Notes under the pieces: model-generated
Told to the model about the DNA's origin: nothing
What the model saw: only the letters and a program-made list of their open reading frames with translations
The model's database searches: none
Made by a program: the position numbers and the translations under genes
NCBI GenBank assembly: GCA_030039865.1
Contig: JASHUS010000205.1
Coordinates: 1 to 39,914, forward strand
DNA: 39,914 bases
Direction: 5' to 3'
Source of the DNA: Thermoplasmata archaeon
GTDB lineage: Archaea > Thermoplasmatota > Thermoplasmata > Lutacidiplasmatales > UBA184
In this document: positions 8,860 through 39,914 of the stretch, one piece after another
Layout of the letters: every line of letters starts with the position of its first letter
How positions within the stretch are numbered: the first letter of the stretch is position 1

Positions 8860-10605
8860 CTACCAGCCCACCGGCGCGCCCTGGTTCTCGTGATCGAGCC
8901 ATCGCTGGAGCGGGGCGAAGTACTCCAGCAGCGCCGCCGCGTCCATGCGGCGCTCGCCCGTCGCGGCCTCGAGCGCGTCGGGCCACTCCCGGCGGCTGCC
9001 GAGCTCGAGCATGGACCGCAGACGTTCGCCGGCGGCGCGCGAGCCATGGATCGTCGCGCGGTGGAGCGGCCCGGAAGAACCCGCTGCGCGCACGAGGGCG
9101 CGGTGGAACTGGAACTCGAGGATGTGCGCGAGGAAGTAGCGCATGTACGGGGTCCCCGAGGCGACGTGGAACTTCGCGCCCGGGTCGAAGTCCGCCTCGC
9201 TTCGGCCGGGCGGCGGGGCGATCCCCTGGCGCTCGGTGCGCATCTCCCACCAGGTCCGGTTGTACCGCTCGGGGCCCACGTCGCCCGAGAAGACCCGCCA
9301 GCGCCATTCGTCCACGACGAGCCCGAACGGCAGGAAGGCGAGCTTCGCGAGCGCGCGGCGGAGCAGGTAGGGGATGTCATCGGTCGGTCCCGACGTCGCG
9401 TCGAGGAGGCCGATCGCCGTGAGGTACTCCGGCGTGACCGAGAGCGCGATCGTGTCGCCGATCGCCTCGTGAAAGCCGTCGTGCGCGCTCTCGCGGAAGA
9501 GGAACGGCTGGCGCGCGTAGGCCCGCTGGTAGAAGTTGTGGCCGAGCTCGTGGTGGACGACGAAGAAGTCCTCCTCGCTGATCTCAAGGCACATCTTGAG
9601 ACGAAGGTCGTCGGCGTAGTCGATGTCCCAGGCGCTCGCGTGGCAGACGACGTCGCGGCCGGGAGGGCGCACGAACATCGAGCGCTCCCAGAACGTCGCG
9701 GGCAGGGGCTCGAACCCGAGCGAGAGAAAGAATCGCTCCCCGTAGCGCACGAGCTCTTGCGGTGTGGTCTTCCGCTCGCGCAGCACCGCGCCGAGGTCCC
9801 AGCTCGGCCCTTCGGTGTCGGGCGCGAGGAGCGGGTAGATCCCGGCCCACGATTGGGCCCACATGTTTCCGAGCAAAAACGCGGGGATCGGTCCGGTGTC
9901 CGGAACGAGCTCGGGACCGTACCGGGCGCCAAGCCGCCGCCGGACATAAGCGTGGAGCGATCGGTAGAGAGGACGCACCTGGTCCCAGAGGCGCCCCGCC
10001 TCGCGGGCGAAGTCGTCCGCCGGCATGTCGTACTTCGCGCGCCAGAGGGCCCCGAGGTCCGGATAGTCGAGCTCGCGGGCGCCTCGATTGGCGAGCTCGA
10101 CGTACCGGGTGAAGTCGGAGCGCATCGGGCGGGCGATCGCGTGCCAGCCGCTCCAGGCCTCCTCGAGCGACGCCGGGTCCCGGCTCGTCTCCAGGATCCG
10201 CGAGAGTCCCTGCACATCGAGCGGCGCCGGGGATCCCCGAGGTTGGTAGCGCCCCCGGGCGTACAGGGCCTGCATCGCGCTCGACAGGCGGCTCAGCTCC
10301 TCGGCCTCGCCCGCGCCGGACGGCGCGATGAGCGTGAACGATCGGCGCAGCAGCTCGAGCTTGCGCGCGTCGACCGGACTCCGAGTTCGCCCTCGCAGGG
10401 CCGACGAACGCTTCGCGAGGTCCGTCGCCGCGGTCATCAGCCGGGCGGCCGCGAGCGAGGTGAGCTCCTCCGTGTCGGGTGTGATGAACGTGCAGTAGAT
10501 CCAGTCCGCGCGGTTCGCCTGGATCGACAGTTCGAGCAGGCTGCGCTCGGCCTGGTCGAGGAACTCGGCCGGATCCGCGGGTGGGACGTCGAGGGGTTCG
10601 CTCAA
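8860..10605 (-). CDS. Peptidase family M2 (angiotensin-converting-enzyme-like peptidyl-dipeptidase)
   Basis: 581 aa. Zinc motif [15 protein letters not shown] followed by [12 protein letters not shown], the ACE-type third-ligand Glu context. N-terminal [13 protein letters not shown] resembles ACE W.Y.TNIT. The start is TTG at 10605. No signal peptide. Confidence 0.85.
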
Positions 10606-10780
10606 CGCGCGAGCGAGCGTCGCTCGAGTTATGAAGGGAGCCGGCCCGACCGCGACCCGGGCGTCCGGTCCGCCATTTGTCGGCTCCGCTTCTCTCTCGG
10701 GCCGGACGGTCCCGGTCGGCAGTTGCCGCTCGAGGTTCTGCCTTTATGTATGACGAACGTCTGACATGCCTCGGCGAGTT

Positions 10781-12849: not shown

Positions 12850-13428
12850 TTACGCCGGCGCCGCGGCGAGGGGCACGCGCACCGTACGAAGCGCGGTCCC
12901 CCACGAGATGACCTGGTCGAGCACCGCCGTCAGTGACCTTTCCTTCAACGGGTCCGGCCGGAACGTGCGGAAGTTCTCGAAGTCGGTGAAGAGCGAGAAC
13001 GATACCTGGGCCCGGACGGTCGCGACCATCAGCTCGGCCATGACGAGCCGGAGGTTCTCGACCGCCCGGACGCCGCCCGCGCTCCCGTAGCTTACGAAGC
13101 CGGCGACCTTGTTGTTCCACTCCGCGTAGAGGAAGTCGATCGCGTTCTTGAGCGCCCCCGACGTACCGTGGTTGTACTCGGGCGTCACGAAGACGAAGGC
13201 GTCGAGCGACGCGATCTTCTGCGCCCAGGCCTTGGTGTGGTCCTGCGAGTACTTCCCCATCGACGGGAGCGCCGGCTCGTCGAGGTGCGGCAGCCGGTAG
13301 TCGAGCAGGTCAACGAGCTCGAACTCCGCGTCGGTGCGCTTCCGCGCGAGATCGTAGACCCAATTGGCCACCGAGGCACCCACGCGGCCTGGGCGCGTGC
13401 TGCCGATGATGATCCCGATACGGATCAT
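12850..13428 (-). CDS. NAD(P)H-dependent FMN reductase family flavoprotein
   Basis: MIRIGIIIGSTRPGRVG (GSxRxxS-type loop), TPEYNHGTSGALKNAIDFL. ATG at 13428 (cat 13426-13428). The track ORF begins at an upstream GTG at 13458. Confidence 0.85.
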   Translation of the reverse strand: MIRIGIIIGSTRPGRVGASVANWVYDLARKRTDAEFELVDLLDYRLPHLDEPALPSMGKYSQDHTKAWAQKIASLDAFVFVTPEYNHGTSGALKNAIDFLYAEWNNKVAGFVSYGSAGGVRAVENLRLVMAELMVATVRAQVSFSLFTDFENFRTFRPDPLKERSLTAVLDQVISWGTALRTVRVPLAAAPA

Positions 13429-13952
13429 ACACGGCCCCCCGTCGGCCGTCGGACGCACAGTTCCGAATTCGCTCCTCTCCCCCTCAGCTCGAGATCCGCC
13501 GATGCGAGCGCTATCATTTCGAAATCAGGTATCTGACGGTTAGCCTATAAACTCTCACCGAAACGCGGGTAAGCTGGTCACGGGCGGGTCGACGGCCGGG
13601 GCCGGCGATGGTGCCTGTCGTCTCTCAGTCGCGGTCGGTATGGGGTCCCCCCGGACGCGGCGCGATATCCCGCGAGAGCCTCGTCACTCAAAGCCCCGCC
13701 TTCCGCTGGATCTCCTGGAACCGGGGATCGAGCCGAACGTACTCGAGCCGGGGGATCGAGCCGCGATACTTTGCGAGCGCATCGGCGTCGTGCCACTCAA
13801 CATCCCCGATCATGTCGGCGGGTATGAATCCACTCCCGGGTCAGTCGACTGGCCCGCGTAACGATCGCGTCAGATCCCCCGGCGTCCCCGCCCCGCGGGG
13901 ACGAAATTCCTCTGGGGGCAGCCGGGCCGATTCCGAATGGGAACGGAATACT

Positions 13953-15887
13953 CTAGTTGGATATGCCGTAGGATTTGCGGACCTTATGAAGCAGGTCCGC
14001 GAATCGAGGATCCGCCGCCATGTTTCGGTACGAGGGGTCTCGAAGTTCGCCGGCCCCCGCGACCTTGCGCTCAATCATGTCTTCCACGAAAGGAAAGAAA
14101 CGCTCCCGATCACCGATGAGCGCCATCGCATACGATACTTGGCCAATCTCACCCAGCGTCGCCGGCGAGTCACGGGCGGCGGCGAGGGCCAGAGTCTCAT
14201 CGATCAGTCGCGAAGCTTCCTCCTTGTTCCCGAGGTGCGCTTCGATCCGGGCCTGGACGCTCTTGTACCTCATCTCGTCCGGCTCTAGTCTTCGGATGGT
14301 TCGCAGATCCCGGTAGGCATCCTCTCGCCGTCCCTTCGTGGCGTTTAGCACGGCGCGGGCGAAGTAGGCCCAGGAGAGGGCGGGCTCCATTTCGATCAAC
14401 CGAGTCGTGGCCGCGAGACATTCGTCGTAGCGGTCCGCGAAGTAGTACGAGATCAGGAGAAACCACGTTCGAGACGATGGAAGCGGGTCCAACTCGTAGG
14501 CCCTCTTCGCCTCGTCGAGGGCTTCGTCCAGCCGACCCAGTCCCCGCAAGACATACCCGTACCGTTCATGGGCGTCGGCGTGACTCGGGTTCAGCGCGAG
14601 CGCCTTCTTGAGTTCGACTTCAGCGCCCGGGTAGTTGTCCCGCATCATCACGTTCGCCATGGCGACATGAGCCTCGGGCAATGTACCGTCGAGTTCGATG
14701 GCCCGCCGAGCGAGCGACTCGGCCCGTCCGTACCCCTCGTCCGGGTCGAGGTATCCTGCCGCTGCCAGATCGCGGTAACAATCGGCCAGCCCGGCAGTCG
14801 CCCGCGCCGACTCCGGATCGAGCTTCATCGCGTCCTCGTAGAGGACCTTGGCCTGTTCGGTGGCTTCCCGGCCGATCTTCGCCCACAAGGCGAGAGCTCG
14901 AAGGCAGAGGGCGTGAACTTCGGGACTTTCCGCCCGGCCCCCGACTCGAGGGGAGGGGAGCTTCAACGCTTCCGCAATCTTGCGCGCGATGTCGGACTGG
15001 GTCTCGAAGACGTCGTCCAGGCTCCCATCGTAGCTCTGTGACCAGAGATGGCTATCTCGCTCGGCGTCGATGAGTTGAACAGTGATTCGCACGCGGTTAC
15101 CGGACTTCCGAACGCTACCTTCGAGGAGTTTTCCGGCCTTCAGTTCGCGTCCGATCTCGGGCAGGCTCTTCGAAGACTGCTTGTACCTCATCGCGGAGGT
15201 CCGCGAGATCACGCTCAGACCGCCGATCCCGGACACCGCCGAAATGATCTCGTCCGTCATCCCGTCGGCGAAGTACTCGTCGCTGGCGGCGGGGCTGAAG
15301 TTGGCGAGGGGAAGAATCGCGATTCGATTCTGATCGACGGCGTACGGTACCGCGCCACCCCTTTCCGTCCACGGCATGACCACCTTGAACAATTCCGGGG
15401 GCGTGCTCACGTTCTTGAGTGGCTTCGGACCGAGGCTCGTCATGGGCAGTTCGAATTTGTTCTGGACCTGGTCGTAGACCTGCCGAGAGATACAGACCCC
15501 GCCGGCTTCTGCGAGCGGCTCGATCCGTGAGGCCACATTCACCGCGTCGCCCGAGATGTCGTCCGGGGTTCCCACCACGTCTCCGAGGTGCACCCCGACC
15601 CGGAGGAGCACCTGCCGCTCGGACGGCCGAGAGAAGTTCGCCTCGCGGCTCGTCCGCTGAATCTCGTAGGCGCACCGCACGGCCTCGAGCGCGTTCGGGA
15701 ACTCCACCAGGAAGCCGTCTCCCATCGTCTTGACTTCCCTCCCCCCGTGGCGCTCGAAAATCGGTCGAAGCATCGCGCGCTGTTCTCCAAGCAACTCGAG
15801 CGAGAGCGCTTCGTCGCGCTGACCGAGCGCCGTGAAGCCGACGATGTCGGTGAACATGATGGCGGAGAGACGACGGACCGACGCCAC
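13953..15887 (-). CDS. Class III adenylate/guanylate cyclase fused to a TolB-N-like domain and TPR repeats
   Basis: 644 aa. Cyclase homology domain with FTDIVGFT, KTMGDGFL and GDAVNVASRIE (metal Asp residues, Lys, Asn-Arg all present). This is followed by IAILPLANFS…YFADGMTDEIIS…LIDAERDSHLW, then repeated TPR-like helices. GTG start at 15887. The gene is visibly A/T-richer than its neighbours. Confidence 0.85.
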   Translation of the reverse strand: MASVRRLSAIMFTDIVGFTALGQRDEALSLELLGEQRAMLRPIFERHGGREVKTMGDGFLVEFPNALEAVRCAYEIQRTSREANFSRPSERQVLLRVGVHLGDVVGTPDDISGDAVNVASRIEPLAEAGGVCISRQVYDQVQNKFELPMTSLGPKPLKNVSTPPELFKVVMPWTERGGAVPYAVDQNRIAILPLANFSPAASDEYFADGMTDEIISAVSGIGGLSVISRTSAMRYKQSSKSLPEIGRELKAGKLLEGSVRKSGNRVRITVQLIDAERDSHLWSQSYDGSLDDVFETQSDIARKIAEALKLPSPRVGGRAESPEVHALCLRALALWAKIGREATEQAKVLYEDAMKLDPESARATAGLADCYRDLAAAGYLDPDEGYGRAESLARRAIELDGTLPEAHVAMANVMMRDNYPGAEVELKKALALNPSHADAHERYGYVLRGLGRLDEALDEAKRAYELDPLPSSRTWFLLISYYFADRYDECLAATTRLIEMEPALSWAYFARAVLNATKGRREDAYRDLRTIRRLEPDEMRYKSVQARIEAHLGNKEEASRLIDETLALAAARDSPATLGEIGQVSYAMALIGDRERFFPFVEDMIERKVAGAGELRDPSYRNMAADPRFADLLHKVRKSYGISN

Positions 15888-15906
15888 GACCCGAAACCTG
15901 CTCCCG

Positions 15907-15916
15907 TTAGATTAAG
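15907..15916 (-). promoter_or_regulatory. TATA-like box upstream of the cyclase gene
   Basis: CTTAATCTAA (minus strand) lies 20-29 nt upstream of the GTG at 15887. Confidence 0.35.
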
Positions 15917-15998
15917 CCCTACACCCCGGAGCCGGCGGAGTCCCACGTCGGAAAGTCGGACCGCTCGGGCTCGTCTTGCCCCAGGCGCCGGTCCGTCG

Positions 15999-16012
15999 AG
16001 TGGACACGGGGG
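15999..16012. repeat. Exact 14-nt copy of the tRNA-Ala 3' end (att-like)
   Basis: AGTGGACACGGGGG at 15999..16012 equals 17150..17163 (two trailer nt plus the discriminator, acceptor 3' strand and T-stem 3' strand of tRNA-Ala, plus-strand reading). Confidence 0.7.
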
Positions 16013-16021
16013 CGTCCGCAT

Positions 16022-16040
16022 CCCCCGGGGGAGTGGACGC
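16022..16040. repeat. Second, imperfect copy of the tRNA-Ala 3' end/trailer junction
   Basis: CCCCCGGGGGAGTGGACGC versus CCCCCGGGGAAGTGGACAC at 17140..17158 (17/19). Together with 16013-16021 it forms the hairpin GCGTCC…GGACGC. Confidence 0.5.
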
Positions 16041-16073
16041 AGAGCCGACGCCCTTCCTGGTTTTGCGAGGTTA

Positions 16074-16262
16074 TCAGACCGATTTGCTCCCGGCCCAGAT
16101 CGTCGGCGCTTCGAGATAGCCTTCGAACACTTCGGTGAAGTTCCGGTTCAACTCGGCCCGGGTCTTCCCCACGGCGATACATCCGGGGAACTCCCGGCAA
16201 TACGCCCAGTACGATCCGCCCTCGCGAACGACGACCTCGGTGAACGACGTAGGATCGCTCAT
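16074..16262 (-). CDS. HicB-like (UPF0150) antitoxin-fold small protein without a DNA-binding extension
   Basis: MSDPTSFTEVVVREGGSYWAYCREFPGCIAVGKTRAELNRNFTEVFEGYLE matches the HicB N-terminal pattern (…GGY.A..P.lPGC...G.T.eEa…i.e.i..yLe). ATG at 16262 within ORF 16074..16322. Confidence 0.6.
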   Translation of the reverse strand: MSDPTSFTEVVVREGGSYWAYCREFPGCIAVGKTRAELNRNFTEVFEGYLEAPTIWAGSKSV

Positions 16263-16522
16263 CCCGGCTCGACCTTCTTCGACTTCGCCTTTGCGAGAGC
16301 ACCGTCGATCCACTTCTCCCACCGCTCGTCCTCGAAAACGGCGAGGCGGGTCATCCCGGCGTTGGAGAAATCAATCCCCTCTCCCTTCGGAGGGAGGCTT
16401 CGGACAAGCAGGCCGAACCGGAAGTCGGGCTGCAGGGCCCAAAGCTCGCCGAGCTTCCGGAGGGTGAGGTCAATCCGCTTCGGGTCTGTCACTCGCCAGG
16501 CCTCTCGGGCGTAAGCGGCCAT
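16259..16522 (-). CDS. Hypothetical 87-aa protein, weakly YihD/DUF1040-like
   Basis: ATG ORF. Its stop overlaps the HicB-like start by 4 nt (ATGA). LGELWALQPDFRFGLLVRSL recalls E. coli YihD (…AWQKEPDFNLLQFLQKL). It does not resemble HicA. Confidence 0.45.
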   Translation of the reverse strand: MAAYAREAWRVTDPKRIDLTLRKLGELWALQPDFRFGLLVRSLPPKGEGIDFSNAGMTRLAVFEDERWEKWIDGALAKAKSKKVEPG

Positions 16523-16554
16523 TTAAGTTGGTGGGCGCGGAGAAATTCGCCGTA

Positions 16555-17058
16555 CTAATGCGGAATCGACTGCCTGACCACCGCGACCGCTTCGCCTGAG
16601 ATAACGAACGATCTCGACCAAGACGGATGCTTCGGAGGATGATAGACCAAAACGTACCGTTGAGATACTTCGGATGCCTCGGTAGTCGAAGGCCCGGATA
16701 GAACCGAGACATTGGCCCAAGAAATCCGCAGATAGTGGTCTCGGAATAGATATCGACGGGCCAGAATGAGGCCGCCCGGGTCCGATCCTACGTGATGGGG
16801 AATGAGGTCAACAGCCGGATAGATCTCTAGACAGAACACCCAACCTACCACAGCGAGCAAGACGGTGAACGGAAGGATCGCGAACAGCCCTGGTCGCGCT
16901 GCGACCGCTAATCCGGCGCCGACAATCGCAAGATCCAACGCCCCAACCAGAATCCAGATCATTTTCCTCGTCTTCGGATAGTCGGCGTTGAGGGCTAAGG
17001 GGCCCGGCGCCTGACTCGCGACGGACTCGGTATCGGACGCGAAACTTGGCCGAGCCAT
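16555..17058 (-). CDS. Two-TM membrane protein with a roughly 100-aa C-terminal soluble domain (architecture reminiscent of bPH/DUF304 proteins)
   Basis: ATG at 17058 (MARPSFASD…) inside ORF 16555..17124. TM helices MIWILVGALDLAIVGAGLAVAA and LFAILPFTVLLAVVGWVFCLEIY. A/T-richer codon usage. Confidence 0.55.
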   Translation of the reverse strand: MARPSFASDTESVASQAPGPLALNADYPKTRKMIWILVGALDLAIVGAGLAVAARPGLFAILPFTVLLAVVGWVFCLEIYPAVDLIPHHVGSDPGGLILARRYLFRDHYLRISWANVSVLSGPSTTEASEVSQRYVLVYHPPKHPSWSRSFVISGEAVAVVRQSIPH

Positions 17059-17151
17059 GGTTAGATTCCGAGACGACCACGAGAGTGATTTCGGCCCCCG
17101 CCTCGACCAGAGCGAGAGCACCAAGTAATGGATTCGAACCCCCCGGGGAAG

Positions 17152-17223
17152 TGGACACGGGGGGATTTGAACCCCCGACCTCTGCTTTGCGAAAGCAGCG
17201 ATCTTCCGCTGATCTACGTGCCC
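17152..17223 (-). tRNA. tRNA-Ala (anticodon CGC), no intron, CCA not encoded
   Basis: Minus-strand read: GGGCACGTAGATCAGCGGAAGATCGCTGCTTTCGCAAAGCAGAGGTCGGGGGTTCAAATCCCCCCGTGTCCA. Acceptor GGGCACG/CGTGTCC with the G3:U70 Ala identity pair, anticodon loop TTCGCAA, T arm GGGGG-TTCAAAT-CCCCC. Confidence 0.95.
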
Positions 17224-18807: not shown

Positions 18808-20529
18808 TCAATCGTACCGGTATCGCGTCGCCGCCCGGCGGTAGAGCGGCTTCCATATGAGCTCGTTGATGGCGATGACGGTTCCGACCATCGCGAGGAG
18901 CGCCGTCGCCATCAGCGCGTAGCCCGACGAGCCCAGCGAGTTGCCGATGTCGATGAGCTGACCGAGGCCGAGCAGGCTCAGCTGCTTCGTCGGACCGACG
19001 CTGAGGTACTCCGCGACGATCAGCGTGTTCCACCCCCCACCGAACGCGGTGATCGAGCCGGTGATGAGCGCCGGGAAGATCCCCGGGAGGAGGACGCGCC
19101 GGAAGAACTTCCAGCCGCGCACGCCGTACGAGCGCGACGCCTCCACGAGGTCCGGCGGCAGGGAGCGCACGCCCGAGAGAATGTTGAAGAAGAGATACCA
19201 CATCATCCCGGTCATCAGCATCAGGATCGACGCGCCCTCCGCGCTGATGAACGGGATCAGCTGGAAGATGATCACGGGAAAGAGCGCGGTCGCGGGGAAC
19301 GACGCGATCACCTCGATGATCGGGAGCCCGACCTTGCTCGCGCGCGAACTGCGGGAGATGTGGATCGCGAGCGGCAGCGAGATGCACAGGCAGATCGCGT
19401 ACGACGCGACGATGCGTAGCGTCGACGCGCCGACGGCGGCCGGCACCTGGGCGATCAGCGCGCGCACCGACGGCTCGATCGGATGCGTGTAGACGCTGAG
19501 GAGCGCGACGACGAGGGCGATCAAGAGCAGCCAGACGATGACCAGGATAGTCCCGAGCGCGAGGTAGTAGTAGACCGAGCGGCGCCGGGCGCTCGAGGGC
19601 CGGACCGGGCGCACGGTGATCGCCGCGAGCTGGACGAGCGGGGTCGTCACCCGCGTGACCCCGGTCCGGACGCGCTCCGTCACGTAGACCCGGGCGCGAT
19701 GGAACCGGCCGGCGGAGTCCCGCTCGGGCGCGACGATCTCGGTCTCGCCGGACGGCGAGACGTCGTACCGGAACCGCTCCGCCCAGCGGCCGAGCGGACG
19801 CCAGACGACGAAGTCGAGCAGCGCGATCACGATCACGAGGACGACGATCCCGGCGAGGAACTCGGCGGCGTTCGAAGCGCTCGCGGCGAACGAGAGGTAG
19901 CTCCCGATCCCCTGCAGCGCGTTCTTGGTGTTGGTCGTGAAGATCTCCGCCTCGACGAGGAAGAACCATCCGGCCGTCCAGGAGAGGACGGTGTTGTAGA
20001 CGAGCCGGTTGACGCACGCGGGATAGAGGACGCGGCGGAAGAGCAGCCAGCCCCGCAGGCCGAACGTGTCGGCGGCCTCCTTGAGATCGCCGGGGAGGGT
20101 CTTCAGCGACTCGTAGACGCCGAAGACCATGTTCCAGGCCATCGAGGTGAAGATCAGGAAGACGGACGCGAAGTTCGGACCGATGAAGCTGCCCGGCGTG
20201 GCCGCCGCGAGGATCACGACTGCGAACGGAAAGAAGCCGAGGATCGGAACGGATTGGAGGATGTCGAGGACGGGGATCATGATGCGTTCCCCGCCTCGGT
20301 GCGTCGCCGCGTAGTACCCGTACGCGAGGGAGAAGCCGAGCGACAGCGCGTAGGCCGCGAGCATGCGCGTGAACGAGTAGGACATGTCGACCGTCGCGCG
20401 GGGGAGGTACGACGCGAAGTTCGAGAGCGACGAGCCCGAGCTCACGGCGAGGAAGACGAACGCGAGCGTCGGGATCGCCGCGTAGATCGCGAGCGCGCGC
20501 CGCGCCGAGGGAAGGACCGTGGTCCGCAC
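18808..20529 (-). CDS. Tandem-fused ABC permease (two BPD_transp_1-type domains), NitT/TauT family
   Basis: Two EAA loops: EAADTFGLRGWLLFRRVLYPA and EASRSYGVRGWKFFRRVLLPG. At least 12 TM helices. The track ORF extends to 20781, but that Arg/Pro-rich extension would overlap tRNA-Gln. The in-frame GTG at 20529 (VRTTVLPSARR…) sits just before the first TM helix. The start is uncertain. Confidence 0.8.
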   Translation of the reverse strand: MRTTVLPSARRALAIYAAIPTLAFVFLAVSSGSSLSNFASYLPRATVDMSYSFTRMLAAYALSLGFSLAYGYYAATHRGGERIMIPVLDILQSVPILGFFPFAVVILAAATPGSFIGPNFASVFLIFTSMAWNMVFGVYESLKTLPGDLKEAADTFGLRGWLLFRRVLYPACVNRLVYNTVLSWTAGWFFLVEAEIFTTNTKNALQGIGSYLSFAASASNAAEFLAGIVVLVIVIALLDFVVWRPLGRWAERFRYDVSPSGETEIVAPERDSAGRFHRARVYVTERVRTGVTRVTTPLVQLAAITVRPVRPSSARRRSVYYYLALGTILVIVWLLLIALVVALLSVYTHPIEPSVRALIAQVPAAVGASTLRIVASYAICLCISLPLAIHISRSSRASKVGLPIIEVIASFPATALFPVIIFQLIPFISAEGASILMLMTGMMWYLFFNILSGVRSLPPDLVEASRSYGVRGWKFFRRVLLPGIFPALITGSITAFGGGWNTLIVAEYLSVGPTKQLSLLGLGQLIDIGNSLGSSGYALMATALLAMVGTVIAINELIWKPLYRRAATRYRYD

Positions 20530-20727
20530 GGGCTTCGACGCGGCCGGACGTCCGACCGTCGTCGCGGGCGCCGGCCCGGTGCGCCCGCGGCTCGCCGCTT
20601 CCGCCGGATCCGAGTCGGTCGTCGGTCTGCCCCCTGGGGCCGGAATCTCTCGCGGACCCCGCTTGGATATATGGGTCGAGTGGTCGAACGGAGTCGGCGG
20701 GGCGCGCGGACGTCGAATTTCGGCAAC

Positions 20728-20735
20728 TTTTATCC
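20728..20735 (+). promoter_or_regulatory. TATA-like box for tRNA-Gln
   Basis: TTTTATCC lies 25-32 nt upstream of the tRNA 5' end (20760) in otherwise GC-rich sequence. Confidence 0.45.
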
Positions 20736-20759
20736 GTACCGCGACGCTGGCGCGGATGT

Positions 20760-20866
20760 AGCCCCGTGGTGTAGTGGCCAATCATGCGAGACTCTGGATC
20801 TCGCGACGCAGGTTCGAACGCCGCGGGGGCGCGTCGCCCTGCCGGCCGGAACTCCTGCCGGGGCTA
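20760..20866 (+). tRNA. tRNA-Gln (anticodon CTG) with a 34-nt intron (20819..20852) in the T loop (between positions 59 and 60); CCA not encoded
   Basis: Acceptor AGCCCCG/CGGGGCT (7/7 bp, A1-U72 as in archaeal tRNA-Gln). Anticodon stem CGAGA/TCTCG with loop CTCTGGA. T stem GCAGG (20808-12)/CCTGC (20854-58). The T loop TTCGAA|T is interrupted. The intron junctions form a bulge-helix-bulge: central helix TTCG (20813-16) with CGGA (20847-50), 3-nt bulges AAC and ACT, and inner helix GCCG (20820-23) with CGGC (20843-46). Confidence 0.9.
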
Positions 20867-20918
20867 CTCGGCGTTCCGACGCGAACTTCCTGTGCGGGGG
20901 TGCTCCAGCTCGGCCAAG

Positions 20919-20938
20919 CGACCCCGGATCCGGGGTCG
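20919..20938. repeat. Perfect 20-nt palindrome downstream of tRNA-Gln
   Basis: CGACCCCGGATCCGGGGTCG is self-complementary. It lies in the intergenic region between tRNA-Gln and the PPP phosphatase gene. Confidence 0.6.
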
Positions 20939-21074
20939 GGTCACCGAGGCAGGGCTTAGGACCCTGTTGCCTAGGGCATGCGCCGGTTCAAAAGGCGCGC
21001 CGGCGCGTCGGGCCGGCCGCCGGGACGTCCGGCCCCCCGCACTCCGCCCGCCCGATTGAGGAGGTCGCCGCGCG

Positions 21075-21968: not shown

Positions 21969-22567
21969 CTAGCGCGCCGCCGGTCGTCGTGGCGCCGGCG
22001 TGGGGGCGGGCTCGGCGTAGAGGGCCCGCTCGAGCTCGCGGGCGGCCTCCGCCGTGCCGGCCGAGCGGAAGGCGTCGAGCCGGGTCCGATTGACCTCGAA
22101 GAACGCCGGTCCTCCCGCGAACCCGTGGAGCAGCTCGGCCGCCTCGGTCGGCCGACCGAGCAGATAGATCGCCGCCCCGAGCGCCTCCGCCGTGTTGAGC
22201 TCGCCGAAGCGGCCGTAGTGCTGGGGATTGGTCGCGATCAGGAACGGCAGGCGCCGACGGGCGAGGGCCCCGCCGTCGCGGATCGGCAACGCCGCGCGGG
22301 CGGAGAGGCGGTTCCACGAGCAGTCGATGACGAGCACGCCGACGCGCTCCGCCGCGGCCGGTCGGCACCCGAGAGCGGACGATCCGCGTACGGGTCGAGG
22401 ACGACCGGGGCGCCGGCGCGCGCGTCCCCGGAGTAGGCTCGGACCAACCCGAGGCTCAACAGGCGTCGACCCGTGCACGCGCGCGGGTGGTCGTCGCCGA
22501 TGACGCGGATCCAGCGGCGGAGGGGGGCGCTAGGTCGGGGGTTGGGCGTACTCCCGGAAGATCCCAT
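21969..22567 (-). pseudogene. tsr3: 16S rRNA aminocarboxypropyltransferase Tsr3 (DUF367) interrupted by a 1-nt frameshift near 22350-22363
   Basis: The N-terminal part (…IRVIGDDHPRACTGRRLLSLGLVRAY…VVLDPYADRPLSGADR) is in the frame of ORF 22238..22807. The C-terminal part (AAAERVGVLVIDCSWNRL…LPFLIATNPQHYGRFGELNTAEALGAAIYLLG…FAGGPAFFEVNRTRL) is in the frame of ORF 21969..22478. Joining the two needs a -1 shift in GACCGGCCGCGG. The only in-frame start is ATG 22567, which overlaps the aldolase 3' end. Confidence 0.75.
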
Positions 22568-29089: not shown

Positions 29090-29535
29090 CGACGCGCGGC
29101 CGCCGGGGACGACGCACCGGCGCGATGGTCCGGATCGCCCGGACCCGTGTCTCGGACCTCTTCGCGCTCGCCGAGCGGGAGGCCGCGGGCGGGGACTTGG
29201 CGCTCGCCGACCGCTACGTGCTCCTCGCGCGCCGCGTGAGCACCCGCTACAACGTCCGTCTTCCGCGAACGTACGGCGAGCTGTACTGCCGAGGCTGCTC
29301 GGCGTTCTGGGTCGAGGGCCGCACGGTCCGGACCCGCCTGCGGTCCGGACGGCGGGTCCGGACGTGCCTCAAGTGCGGGCGGGCCCGGCGCGCCCCGCTC
29401 GCCCCGGCTCGATTGTCGACGGTCCCGGCGCCCGGCCGGGGGTCGGAAGGCATCGAGCGGGAGGAGGGGGCGCTCTCGTTCGTCCTCCCCGAGGAAGAGT
29501 CGGAGCTCGCCGACGAGGAATCGGAAGAGGAATAA
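29086..29535 (+). CDS. rnp4: RNase P protein component 4 (Rpp21/Rpr2)
   Basis: …RIARTRVSDLFALAEREA…LADRYVLLARRVSTRYNVRLPRTYGELYCRGCSAFWVEGRTVRTRLR…RTCLKCG is the Rpp21 helical N-domain plus zinc ribbon. GTG 29086 overlaps the preceding TGA (GTGA) and supplies the usual basic N-terminus (TTRGRRGRR). The alternative start is ATG 29125. The C-terminal tail is acidic. Confidence 0.85.
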   Translation: MTTRGRRGRRTGAMVRIARTRVSDLFALAEREAAGGDLALADRYVLLARRVSTRYNVRLPRTYGELYCRGCSAFWVEGRTVRTRLRSGRRVRTCLKCGRARRAPLAPARLSTVPAPGRGSEGIEREEGALSFVLPEEESELADEESEEE

Positions 29536-29562: not shown

Positions 29563-29645
29563 GCCGGGGTGGCCGAGCGGCCAAAGGCGGCAGACTCAAG
29601 ATCTGCTCTCGCAGGAGTTCCCAGGTTCGAATCCTGGCCCCGGCA
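29563..29645 (+). tRNA. tRNA-Leu (anticodon CAA), long variable arm, CCA not encoded
   Basis: GCCGGGGTGGCCGAGCGGCCAAAGGCGGCAGACTCAAGATCTGCTCTCGCAGGAGTTCCCAGGTTCGAATCCTGGCCCCGGCA. Acceptor GCCGGGG/CCCCGGC, anticodon stem GCAGA/TCTGC with loop CTCAAGA, T arm CCAGG-TTCGAAT-CCTGG. Confidence 0.95.
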
Positions 29646-29738
29646 CATGAACCCTCCCCTGGGCGTCGCCGAACGGAATCCTTCCGGGGCCCTCGGCGCC
29701 CTCCGCGAGTTCGATCTTCGCTCGGGGAAGCATCGTCT

Positions 29739-38592: not shown

Positions 38593-38691
38593 CTCGCCCC
38601 GTAGGTGCTAGGCCCCGGGGCGGGATAATGCTCGCTCCGGCGCGGGGCCTCCAACCGAAGTTTCATCCGCCGGGTTCTCCCGTCCTCGCGC

Positions 38692-39914
38692 GATGACCGT
38701 AGAGGCGGCGGCGCCCGGCGCGTCGGCCGAAGCGGACCGGGTCGAGGCGGCGGTCGCGGCGCGCATCGACCCCTCGCCCGAGTTCCTCGCGCGGGTCGAG
38801 CGCGTGCGGACGGAGCTGGTGCGGCGTGTCGCCGAGGCGGCGCAGGCCCGGTCCAGCCCGCTCGTCCGGGCGTTGGTCGCCGGTAGCGCGGCGCGCGGGA
38901 CGTTCCTGACCGATCGACTCGACATCGACCTCTTCCTGCTCTTTCCGCCCGATCTTCCGCGCGAGCGTTTGCGCGAGGAAGGTCTCGCGCTCGGGCGAAG
39001 CGTGCTCGCCGAGCCCGAGACGCGGTATGCCGAGCATCCGTACCTGCGGGGCGTGTTCGAGGGGTTCCGGGTCGACGCGGTCCCCGGGTACGCCGTCGCC
39101 GATCCGAGCCGGCCCCTGTCGGCCGTCGATCGGACCCCCTTCCACCAAGCGTACCTCGAATCCCGAGAGCCCCCCGAGGTCGTGCGGCAGGTCCGGCTCG
39201 CGAAGCAGTTCTTCCGGGCGGTCGGGGTCTACGGCTCCGAGGCCCGGACCGAGGGGTTCTCGGGCTATCTCGTCGAACTGTTGGTCGTCCGCTTCGGCTC
39301 GCTGCGCGCGCTGCTCACCGAAGCGCGGCGCTGGAGAATACCGGCCCGGGTCGGCGAACCGAGCCGCGATCCGCCCCGCCTACCGGAGCACGTGGCGCTG
39401 ATCCTCGCCGATCCGGTCGACCCGAACCGCAACGTCGCGAGCGCTCTGTCGCGGCGCAACCTCGGGCTCTTCATCCTGGCCGCGGGGGCGTACCTCGACG
39501 CCCCCTCCGAACGGTGGTTCCGGCCGACAAGCCCGGCCGGATGGACGCGGGAGCAGGCGCTCGCCCGGTTGCACGAGCGAGCGACGCACGTCACGGTCGT
39601 CTCGCTGCCGCGGCCGGACCTGGTCGACGACACGCTCTTCCCGCAACTCCGCAAGGCCGCGCGCGCGATATCGGACGAGCTTGCGAGGGCCGAGTTCCCG
39701 CCGCTCGGCTGGTCGATCGCGGCCGGGACGGACGAGGTGCATTTCCTCTTCGAGCTGCCGCACGCGCGTCGATCGGCCGTTCGGGTGCAGGACGGCCCGC
39801 CGCCCGGGATCGACCGGGTCGGCCAGTTCCTCGGGAAGTGGACGGACCGGGACGCGCCCGTTCTGCAGGGTCCGTACGTGCGCGAGGACGGCAGCCTCGC
39901 GGTCGAGTCCCGGC
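38692..39914 (+). CDS. cca: CCA-adding enzyme (archaeal class I tRNA nucleotidyltransferase), 3'-truncated by the window end
   Basis: Hand-translated from ATG 38692; not in the track because there is no stop in the window. GSAARGTFLTDRLDIDLFLLFP, YAEHPYLRG, VDAVPGY, SAVDRTPFHQAYL, VRLAKQFFRAVGVYGSEARTEGFSGYLVELLVVRFGS. Confidence 0.88.

Follow-up and report, generated by a model that had tools for sequence, protein, structure and literature searches.

A conserved tRNA-Gln(CUG) gene with a predicted bulge-helix-bulge intron in the T loop of a high-GC Thermoplasmata archaeon

The window, the whole stretch of DNA analysed here, comprises 39,914 nucleotides of contig JASHUS010000205.1 from a Thermoplasmata archaeon and has a G+C content of 69.6%. 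A direct check of the sequence places a tRNA-Gln(CUG) gene, intron included, at 20760..20866 on the plus strand. The 5′ exon (20760..20818, +) carries tRNA positions 1-59, and the 3′ exon (20853..20866, +) supplies T60, the 3′ strands of the T stem and acceptor stem and the discriminator A73, with no encoded CCA. Between them lie 34 extra bases (20819..20852, +) that separate the TTCGAA of the T loop from its final T and correspond to an intron at 59/60. The acceptor stem pairs AGCCCCG (20760-66) with CGGGGCT (20859-65) and is followed by the discriminator A at 20866. The D arm reads GTGT-AGTGGCCAA-TCAT, the anticodon arm is CGAGA-CTCTGGA-TCTCG with the anticodon CTG at 20794-20796 in the loop CTCTGGA, the variable region is 4 nt long, and the T stem is formed by GCAGG (20808-12) and CCTGC (20854-58).

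Removal of the 34 bases produces a perfect cloverleaf. ARAGORN identifies the spliced 73-mer as a tRNA-Gln(ctg) in which every stem is paired and the T loop reads TTCGAAT. Given the unspliced DNA it proposes nothing better than a defective 76-nt gene (20758-20833) whose acceptor and T stems contain mismatches, and the same DNA scores 24.7 bits with the Rfam tRNA family RF00005, below the gathering threshold of 29 bits, as expected for a gene with a T-loop intron. The first-pass annotation had stated that the cloverleaf forms only if 20819..20852 is removed and that gene finders easily miss this tRNA-Gln, and these calls agree with it on both points. The gene shows the features of archaeal tRNA-Gln, namely the anticodon CUG, an A1-U72 pair and A73. 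The A1 start and the U72-A73 end recur in every complete archaeal tRNA-Gln listed except one anomalous gene (L002), and the spliced molecule matches the intron-less tRNA-Gln(CUG) genes found in other archaea at 59-64 of its 73 positions; the T arm of each of those genes contains GGTTCGAATCC. A self-splicing group I or group II intron was considered and rejected, the insert being only 34 nt long compared with a ribozyme core of hundreds of nucleotides and matching no Rfam intron family.

The comparison brought out other unusual tRNA-Gln genes. The anomalous gene of Woesearchaeota (L002, JAHWHY010000001.1, minus strand, ~6420 of the reverse complement) is tRNA-Gln(UUG)-like with ~29 extra nt after a complete TTCGAAT; between its 5′ end, GCTTGCGGA, and the 3′ acceptor strand CGGGGCT there is no pairing, and the gene may have further introns or be split. 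About 40 haloarchaeal loci (e.g., L005, L013, L043 and L089) have tRNA-Gln(UUG) with canonical 37/38 introns of ~29-78 nt. Other haloarchaea have the same tRNA gene with no intron, a polymorphism of presence, absence and length across genera.

The T arm and intron of the window gene form an hBHBh′ splicing motif (20808..20858, +). The outer helix h is the 5-bp T stem, which runs directly into a central helix H of 4 bp (TTCG 20813-16 with CGGA 20847-50, +). This helix is flanked on opposite strands by the 5′ bulge AAC (20817-19, +) and the 3′ bulge ACT (20851-53, +), beyond which lie the inner helix h′ (GCCG 20820-23 with CGGC 20843-46, +) and an apical hairpin (20824-42, +). In an unconstrained RNAfold prediction the minimum free energy structure of the 107-nt precursor is the cloverleaf with precisely this arrangement, a 3-nt bulge lying on either side of the 4-bp helix between T stem and inner helix. 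The archaeal splicing endonuclease EndA cleaves after the second nucleotide of each bulge. Cleavage by this rule would take out 20819..20852 and leave the T loop TTCGAAT, and in the mature tRNA the expected exon junction is ...GGUUCGAA joined to UCCUGC.... The sequence of one genome alone fits junctions at 59/60 and 58/59 equally well, and the choice between them needs both the rule and a comparison of genomes. The call of 59/60 is made because it follows from the cleavage rule and because no other junction leads to one and the same mature tRNA throughout the 25 genomes compared. The helices and bulges proposed at first reading match the sequence in their coordinates and recur in the minimum free energy fold, and a check of the junction supports the proposal that a cut after the second bulge nucleotide regenerates TTCGAAT. 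The further claim that this is the substrate geometry of the splicing endonuclease, in the strict hBHBh′ form with a 34-nt intron at 59/60, is sustained by the fold and by conservation in 25 of 25 genomes. Motifs with this 3-4-3 geometry have been described (PMC3239211).

Relatives were collected by scanning public genomes with a pattern for the D arm and anticodon loop, which yielded at least 120 loci. Among the matches listed, the same tRNA-Gln(CUG) is found in 24 metagenome-assembled genomes (MAGs) of Thermoplasmata or Thermoplasmatota, one of them Candidatus Lutacidiplasma silvani AcS3-62; with the window they make up the 25 genomes. The exons are identical in all 25 except at position 9 in the 5′ exon, which is G or A, and the flanking genes, although syntenic, are only ~67-78% identical in DNA. 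Every genome has a 34-nt intron at the same site, yet there are 25 different intron sequences. In the gap-free alignment H is paired at 4/4 bp in 25/25 genomes, and its variation is one-sided, the intron side changing only between A and G opposite U54 and U55. The first pair of h′ (G61-C87) is invariant in all 25, the second is kept in 21 and the third in 22, with compensatory exchanges of CG to GC or UA, and h is invariant in the relatives. The apical hairpin sequence varies freely. The conserved positions of the intron are those that the motif needs, and with equal length and compensatory changes in h′ and the hairpin it is the structure rather than the sequence that is conserved.

Three measures of covariation (pairs changed on both sides, cells changed on both sides and a covariation score) reach their observed values in only 3-6 of 500 shuffles, and sliding the 3′ partners as a control lowers pairing from 90% to 22-52%. 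Since the exons are invariant, the exon stems contribute no evidence of covariation. When the T arm and intron are folded with no constraint, 17 of the 25 genomes give the exact motif; in most of the eight deviating folds the register of h′ is shifted while H and both bulges are preserved, and in two H is opened. A conserved apical structure was considered and rejected, as a hairpin model with fixed columns pairs 72% of the cells and the register of the hairpin differs between genomes. Identical exons, a free intron interior and fixed bulge-helix-bulge pairs are together the signature of a spliced, functional gene and not of a pseudogene.

A block at ~-40 to -23 upstream of the gene, with the consensus ggcaacgTTTATCaacgg, is kept in 25/25 loci. 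In the 25-locus upstream alignment it contains a TATA-box-like element, TTTTATCC (20728..20735, +), at ~-32 to -25 from tRNA position 1. From its position and conservation the block can be read as an archaeal BRE/TATA promoter. A mechanically derived open reading frame on the opposite strand (18808..20781, -) runs antisense across this conserved promoter and the first 22 nt of tRNA-Gln. It extends an ABC-transporter permease gene (BPD_transp_1), whose homology to more distant relatives begins only at residues ~93-124 of the long frame. Alignments that do reach residue 1 are explained by the conservation of the tRNA DNA itself. At the identical locus the public annotation has a gene of 573 aa, which matches the GTG start at 20529 and a gene at 18808..20529 (-), exactly 252 nt shorter than the long frame. 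On this evidence the N-terminal extension of 252 nt (84 codons) is spurious, as had been proposed at the outset. An ABC ATPase encoded in the window has identical counterparts on contigs of the assemblies JASIDV01, JASIIU01 and JASIQO01, whose accessions lie in the range of those of the 'Thermoplasmata archaeon JOPF' MAGs among the relatives.

After a spacer of 27 nt, tRNA-Gln is followed by a gene for tRNA-Leu(UAG) (20894..21041, +), which is conserved in 24/24 relatives and specifies a class II tRNA whose variable arm is long. Neither ARAGORN nor Rfam calls it on genomic DNA. Its exons are 20894-20917, 20945-20992 and 21028-21041, the anticodon TAG lies at 20957-59, and ARAGORN recognizes the doubly spliced 86-mer as tRNA-Leu(tag). 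The first intron, 27 nt long (20918..20944, +), is located in the D loop at 21/22, between A21 and C22. It forms a strict hBHBh′ motif with H as GGCC:GGTC and the bulges AAG and ACC, and H is paired at 4/4 bp in 24/24 genomes. The second, at 59/60, is 35 nt long (20993..21027, +) and either 32 or 35 nt in relatives; its central helix consists of three standard pairs and an A57.G apposition, the latter present in 24/25 genomes. The expected exon junctions of the mature tRNA are ...GGCCAA joined to CGAGG... and ...GGUUCAAA joined to UCCGGC.... In Thermoplasmata archaeon JA4.bin45 (L099:916-1036, +) the same tRNA-Leu(UAG) has the 59/60 intron and no D-loop intron. By sequence comparison this is a precise loss or gain of the D-loop intron at the junction that the bulge-helix-bulge motif predicts, and it is a natural control for the rule. 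A scan for 59/60-type motifs on both strands of the window and 27 loci detects, in every one of the 25 genomes, tRNA-Gln and the adjacent tRNA-Leu, and otherwise only three unconserved matches that resemble coding sequence, by which count the tRNA-Gln motif is more than a product of chance. Since the two tRNA-Leu introns are further bulge-helix-bulge introns, the lineage must splice such substrates.

The search for other non-canonical introns recommended in the first-pass annotation thus gives, within the window, two in tRNA-Leu(UAG) and none in the remaining tRNA genes, tRNA-Ala(CGC) (17151-17223, -) and tRNA-Leu(CAA) (29563-29646). The region at ~13000..17150, directly 3′ of tRNA-Ala(CGC), has a G+C content of 60-65% compared with ~70%. 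It has no blastn match in 12 relatives with tRNA-Ala in the locus, 11 of which hold 0.7-4 kb of flank beyond that gene. This island encodes an adenylate/guanylate cyclase-TPR protein (13953-15887, -) and reading frames with no Pfam match; the tRNA-Ala 3′ end is repeated exactly over 14 nt at 15999-16012, and no integrase was found beside the island. The island may be what is left of an integrated element. Elsewhere in the window lies a full-length homologue of Peptidase_M2, the angiotensin-converting-enzyme family (8860..10743, -; E = 6e-200), in this archaeal genome. Several genes with roles in RNA maturation are situated close to the tRNA genes of the window: a Ribo_biogen_C (PF04034) ribosome-biogenesis protein, Tsr3-like by eye (21969..22478, -), a class I aminoacyl-tRNA synthetase of the Glu/Gln type (26134..~27560, -), the RNase P protein subunit Rpr2/Rpp21 (~29150..29535, +) directly upstream of tRNA-Leu(CAA), and a CCA-adding enzyme (38612..39913, +) that reaches the end of the window, whose tRNA genes encode no CCA.

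Taken together, the evidence makes it very probable that 20760..20866 is a functional tRNA-Gln(CUG) gene with an intron, spliced as proposed above, and that it belongs to a Thermoplasmata archaeon of high G+C content resembling Lutacidiplasmatales (TMEG). The gene could instead be a pseudogene, inactivated by the 34-nt insertion, with a functional intron-less copy elsewhere. This would account for the lack of a good ARAGORN or Rfam call on the genomic sequence, and a second copy is conceivable given that only 40 kb of the genome is visible. A pseudogene would hardly keep its exons identical in 25 genomes while the flanking genes diverge to ~70% identity, nor would it retain its promoter block together with the length and bulge-helix-bulge pairs of an intron whose interior varies. 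No second tRNA-Gln(CUG) locus from these assemblies is found among the matches listed. Inactivation, the alternative named in the first-pass annotation, is thereby contradicted by conservation in relatives and is very improbable. Still less credible is that the 34 nt are retained as an expanded T arm, or that the true gene is the 76-nt call at 20758-20833 that ARAGORN does report as a tRNA-Gln. The 76-nt form contains two non-standard appositions and a G-U pair in its acceptor stem and one mismatch and a weak pair in its T stem, and it ignores the perfectly complementary CGGGGCT at 20859-65 that is conserved in all relatives. tRNAs require T54-A58 and the T-loop/D-loop architecture, both of which would be lost with an unspliced T loop.

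A real intron might also be excised at 58/59 or through another fold. The order A58 A59 / C ... A C / T would permit TTCGA plus CT as a 7-nt T loop, and the shifted register of h′ or the opened H in the folds of eight of 25 relatives leaves some room for a different structure. The rule of cleavage after the second bulge nucleotide, as at 37/38, points to 59/60. With the alternative junction position 59 would vary between C, A and T, whereas TTCGAAT results in 25/25 genomes from 59/60 alone, and A59 is found in all intron-less archaeal tRNA-Gln genes listed. Excision at another site has a slim chance at most, and the 59/60 junction is preferred.

From the gene, its motif, the exact geometry and the conservation we infer a transcription unit, the steps of cleavage and ligation and the enzymes involved. 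tRNA-Gln would be transcribed from the TATA-box promoter ~30 nt upstream, and with a spacer of only 27 nt it is probably co-transcribed with tRNA-Leu(UAG), transcription running on into the second gene. In the precursor, T-loop nucleotides 54-57 would pair with the 3′ end of the intron, extending the T stem into a bulge-helix-bulge. The resulting structure would mimic the canonical substrate of the anticodon arm: the T stem takes the place of the anticodon stem, loop nucleotides 54-57 that of 32-35, and 59/60 that of 37/38. The 5′ bulge would consist of positions 58 and 59 and the first intron nucleotide (cf. 36, 37 and intron nucleotide 1), and the 3′ bulge of the last two intron nucleotides and position 60 (cf. 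38). EndA would cut after A59 (20818) and before T60 (20853), an RtcB-type ligase would join the exons to restore the T loop UUCGAAU, and RNase P, RNase Z and the CCA-adding enzyme would complete the tRNA.

No EndA gene is present in the window. With M. jannaschii EndA as query, a sequence that agrees with PDB 1A79 at all 171 residues of the crystallised chain, tblastn found a two-repeat EndA only in L058, a locus of another Thermoplasmatota lineage whose tRNA-Gln has no intron. There the gene, of α′2 type (L058:73-1161, -), lies ~4 kb from the intron-less tRNA-Gln(UUG). Used as a query in turn, the L058 protein has 2,128 homologues at E <= 1e-10 in a first search and 1,436 at E <= 1e-60 in a second. 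The best 120 of each search are two-repeat proteins of ~350 aa with both EndA Pfam domains, shown in the locus tables in the order N-C-N-C, and several are encoded on contigs of 65-70% G+C. The representative P0010 has retained the catalytic Tyr, His and Lys in its C-terminal repeat only and lacks an insertion close to the His, features that assign it to the α′2 type. Eight contigs that carry such homologues all lie outside the intron-bearing assemblies and belong to CDDBJM01, JBFMHR01, DASYUB01, JAZGBJ01, JABAOH01 (twice), JABAOD01 and one Logan contig. On related contigs a PDDEXK_19/HTH_3 gene usually precedes EndA. The intron-bearing lineage itself probably has an α′2 endonuclease, as expected from the Thermoplasmatota homologues.

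The most immediate consequence is for annotation. Two of the four tRNA genes of the window, Gln-CUG and Leu-UAG, are invisible to or miscalled by ARAGORN and Rfam, and the gap left by the missed tRNA is filled by a spurious extension of 84 codons on the permease. MAGs of this lineage from soil and peat could have faulty annotations and misleading measures of tRNA completeness unless tools aware of the bulge-helix-bulge motif are used. On the side of enzymology, the clade is a group of Thermoplasmatota with three conserved non-canonical introns, including a gene with two, all in strict or nearly strict motifs. This fits the view that the strictness of the motif, and not the position of the intron, limits the α4 and α2 enzymes, and the introns of tRNA-Gln and tRNA-Leu are a natural set of substrates for testing the range of an α′2 endonuclease. 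A bolder reading, which is rather doubtful, is that an order-level clade, probably with a strict α′2 enzyme only, has kept T- and D-loop introns in adjacent tRNA-Gln and tRNA-Leu genes throughout its diversification, with that of tRNA-Gln fixed at 34 nt. In that case positive selection would act on the introns for some role other than simply being removable, possibly the disruption of a T-arm attachment site for integrating elements or the ordering of tRNA maturation. The rule of single canonical introns in α4 and α2 lineages would likewise have a natural counter-example in this clade.

Bulge-helix-bulge introns at 59/60 are known from Crenarchaeota and from ARMAN-2. Those documented in ARMAN-2 are cleaved in vitro by archaeal EndA (PMC3239211). 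They share with the window gene the point of insertion in the T loop, a T stem that serves as the outer helix and T-loop nucleotides that pair with the intron. The tRNA-Pro(GGG) of ARMAN-2 has the strict hBHBh′ form, as does the tRNA-Gln of the window. The ARMAN-2 tRNA-Cys intron, cut in vitro by archaeal EndA, is a relaxed hBH motif of 13 nt; the window intron, in contrast, is 34 nt long, strict and conserved across an order-level clade. ARMAN-2 belongs to DPANN and has a three-unit ε2 EndA with broad specificity, whereas the host here is one of the Thermoplasmatota. A G+C content of ~69% and a cytochrome oxidase subunit I gene in the window are as described for Lutacidiplasmatales, and the host is a high-GC Thermoplasmata lineage similar to that order and not a crenarchaeon. 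In the literature searched there is no report of non-canonical tRNA introns in Lutacidiplasmatales (TMEG), and the paper describing the order does not mention tRNA introns (PMC9287336).

The canonical 37/38 introns of euryarchaea, such as those of haloarchaeal tRNA-Gln(UUG), have the same 3-4-3 geometry, with a 5-bp stem leading into a 4-bp helix between loop and intron and a cut after the second bulge nucleotide. Here the motif resides on the T arm instead of the anticodon arm, for which reason gene finders that allow only 37/38 introns miss the tRNA-Gln. Euryarchaea with α4 or α2 enzymes are said to have only single canonical 37/38 introns, and tRNA-Trp introns that bear a C/D box are ~65 nt long (PMC4090602) compared with 34 nt in the tRNA-Gln of the window. 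The multi-intron tRNAs of Thermoproteales and Thaumarchaeota (PMC8450103) resemble the present genes in their non-canonical D- and T-loop positions and, in the case of tRNA-Leu(UAG), in having more than one intron per gene. The lineages concerned have (αβ)2 EndA with a specificity loop and many relaxed motifs, whereas the motifs described here are strict or nearly so.

In the tRNAscan-SE 2.0 survey of 217 archaeal genomes 673 non-canonical introns were counted in 10,372 tRNA genes, with 531 in 2,814 genes of Crenarchaeota, 107 in 498 of Thaumarchaeota and 25 in 6,970 of Euryarchaeota (PMC8450103 Table S7). The initial statement that non-canonical positions are known mainly from Crenarchaeota agrees with this catalogue, in which they are found mainly in Crenarchaeota and Thaumarchaeota. 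The same table gives six for 138 tRNA genes of Methanomassiliicoccales, with two in one gene, and one for 231 tRNA genes of Thermoplasmatales. These are members of the same phylum as the window with a similarly low number per genome, and their introns may be orthologous to those reported here, though the table gives no positions or isoacceptors. Introns of the kind present in this tRNA-Gln are already known from archaea but are rare in the lineage of the window.
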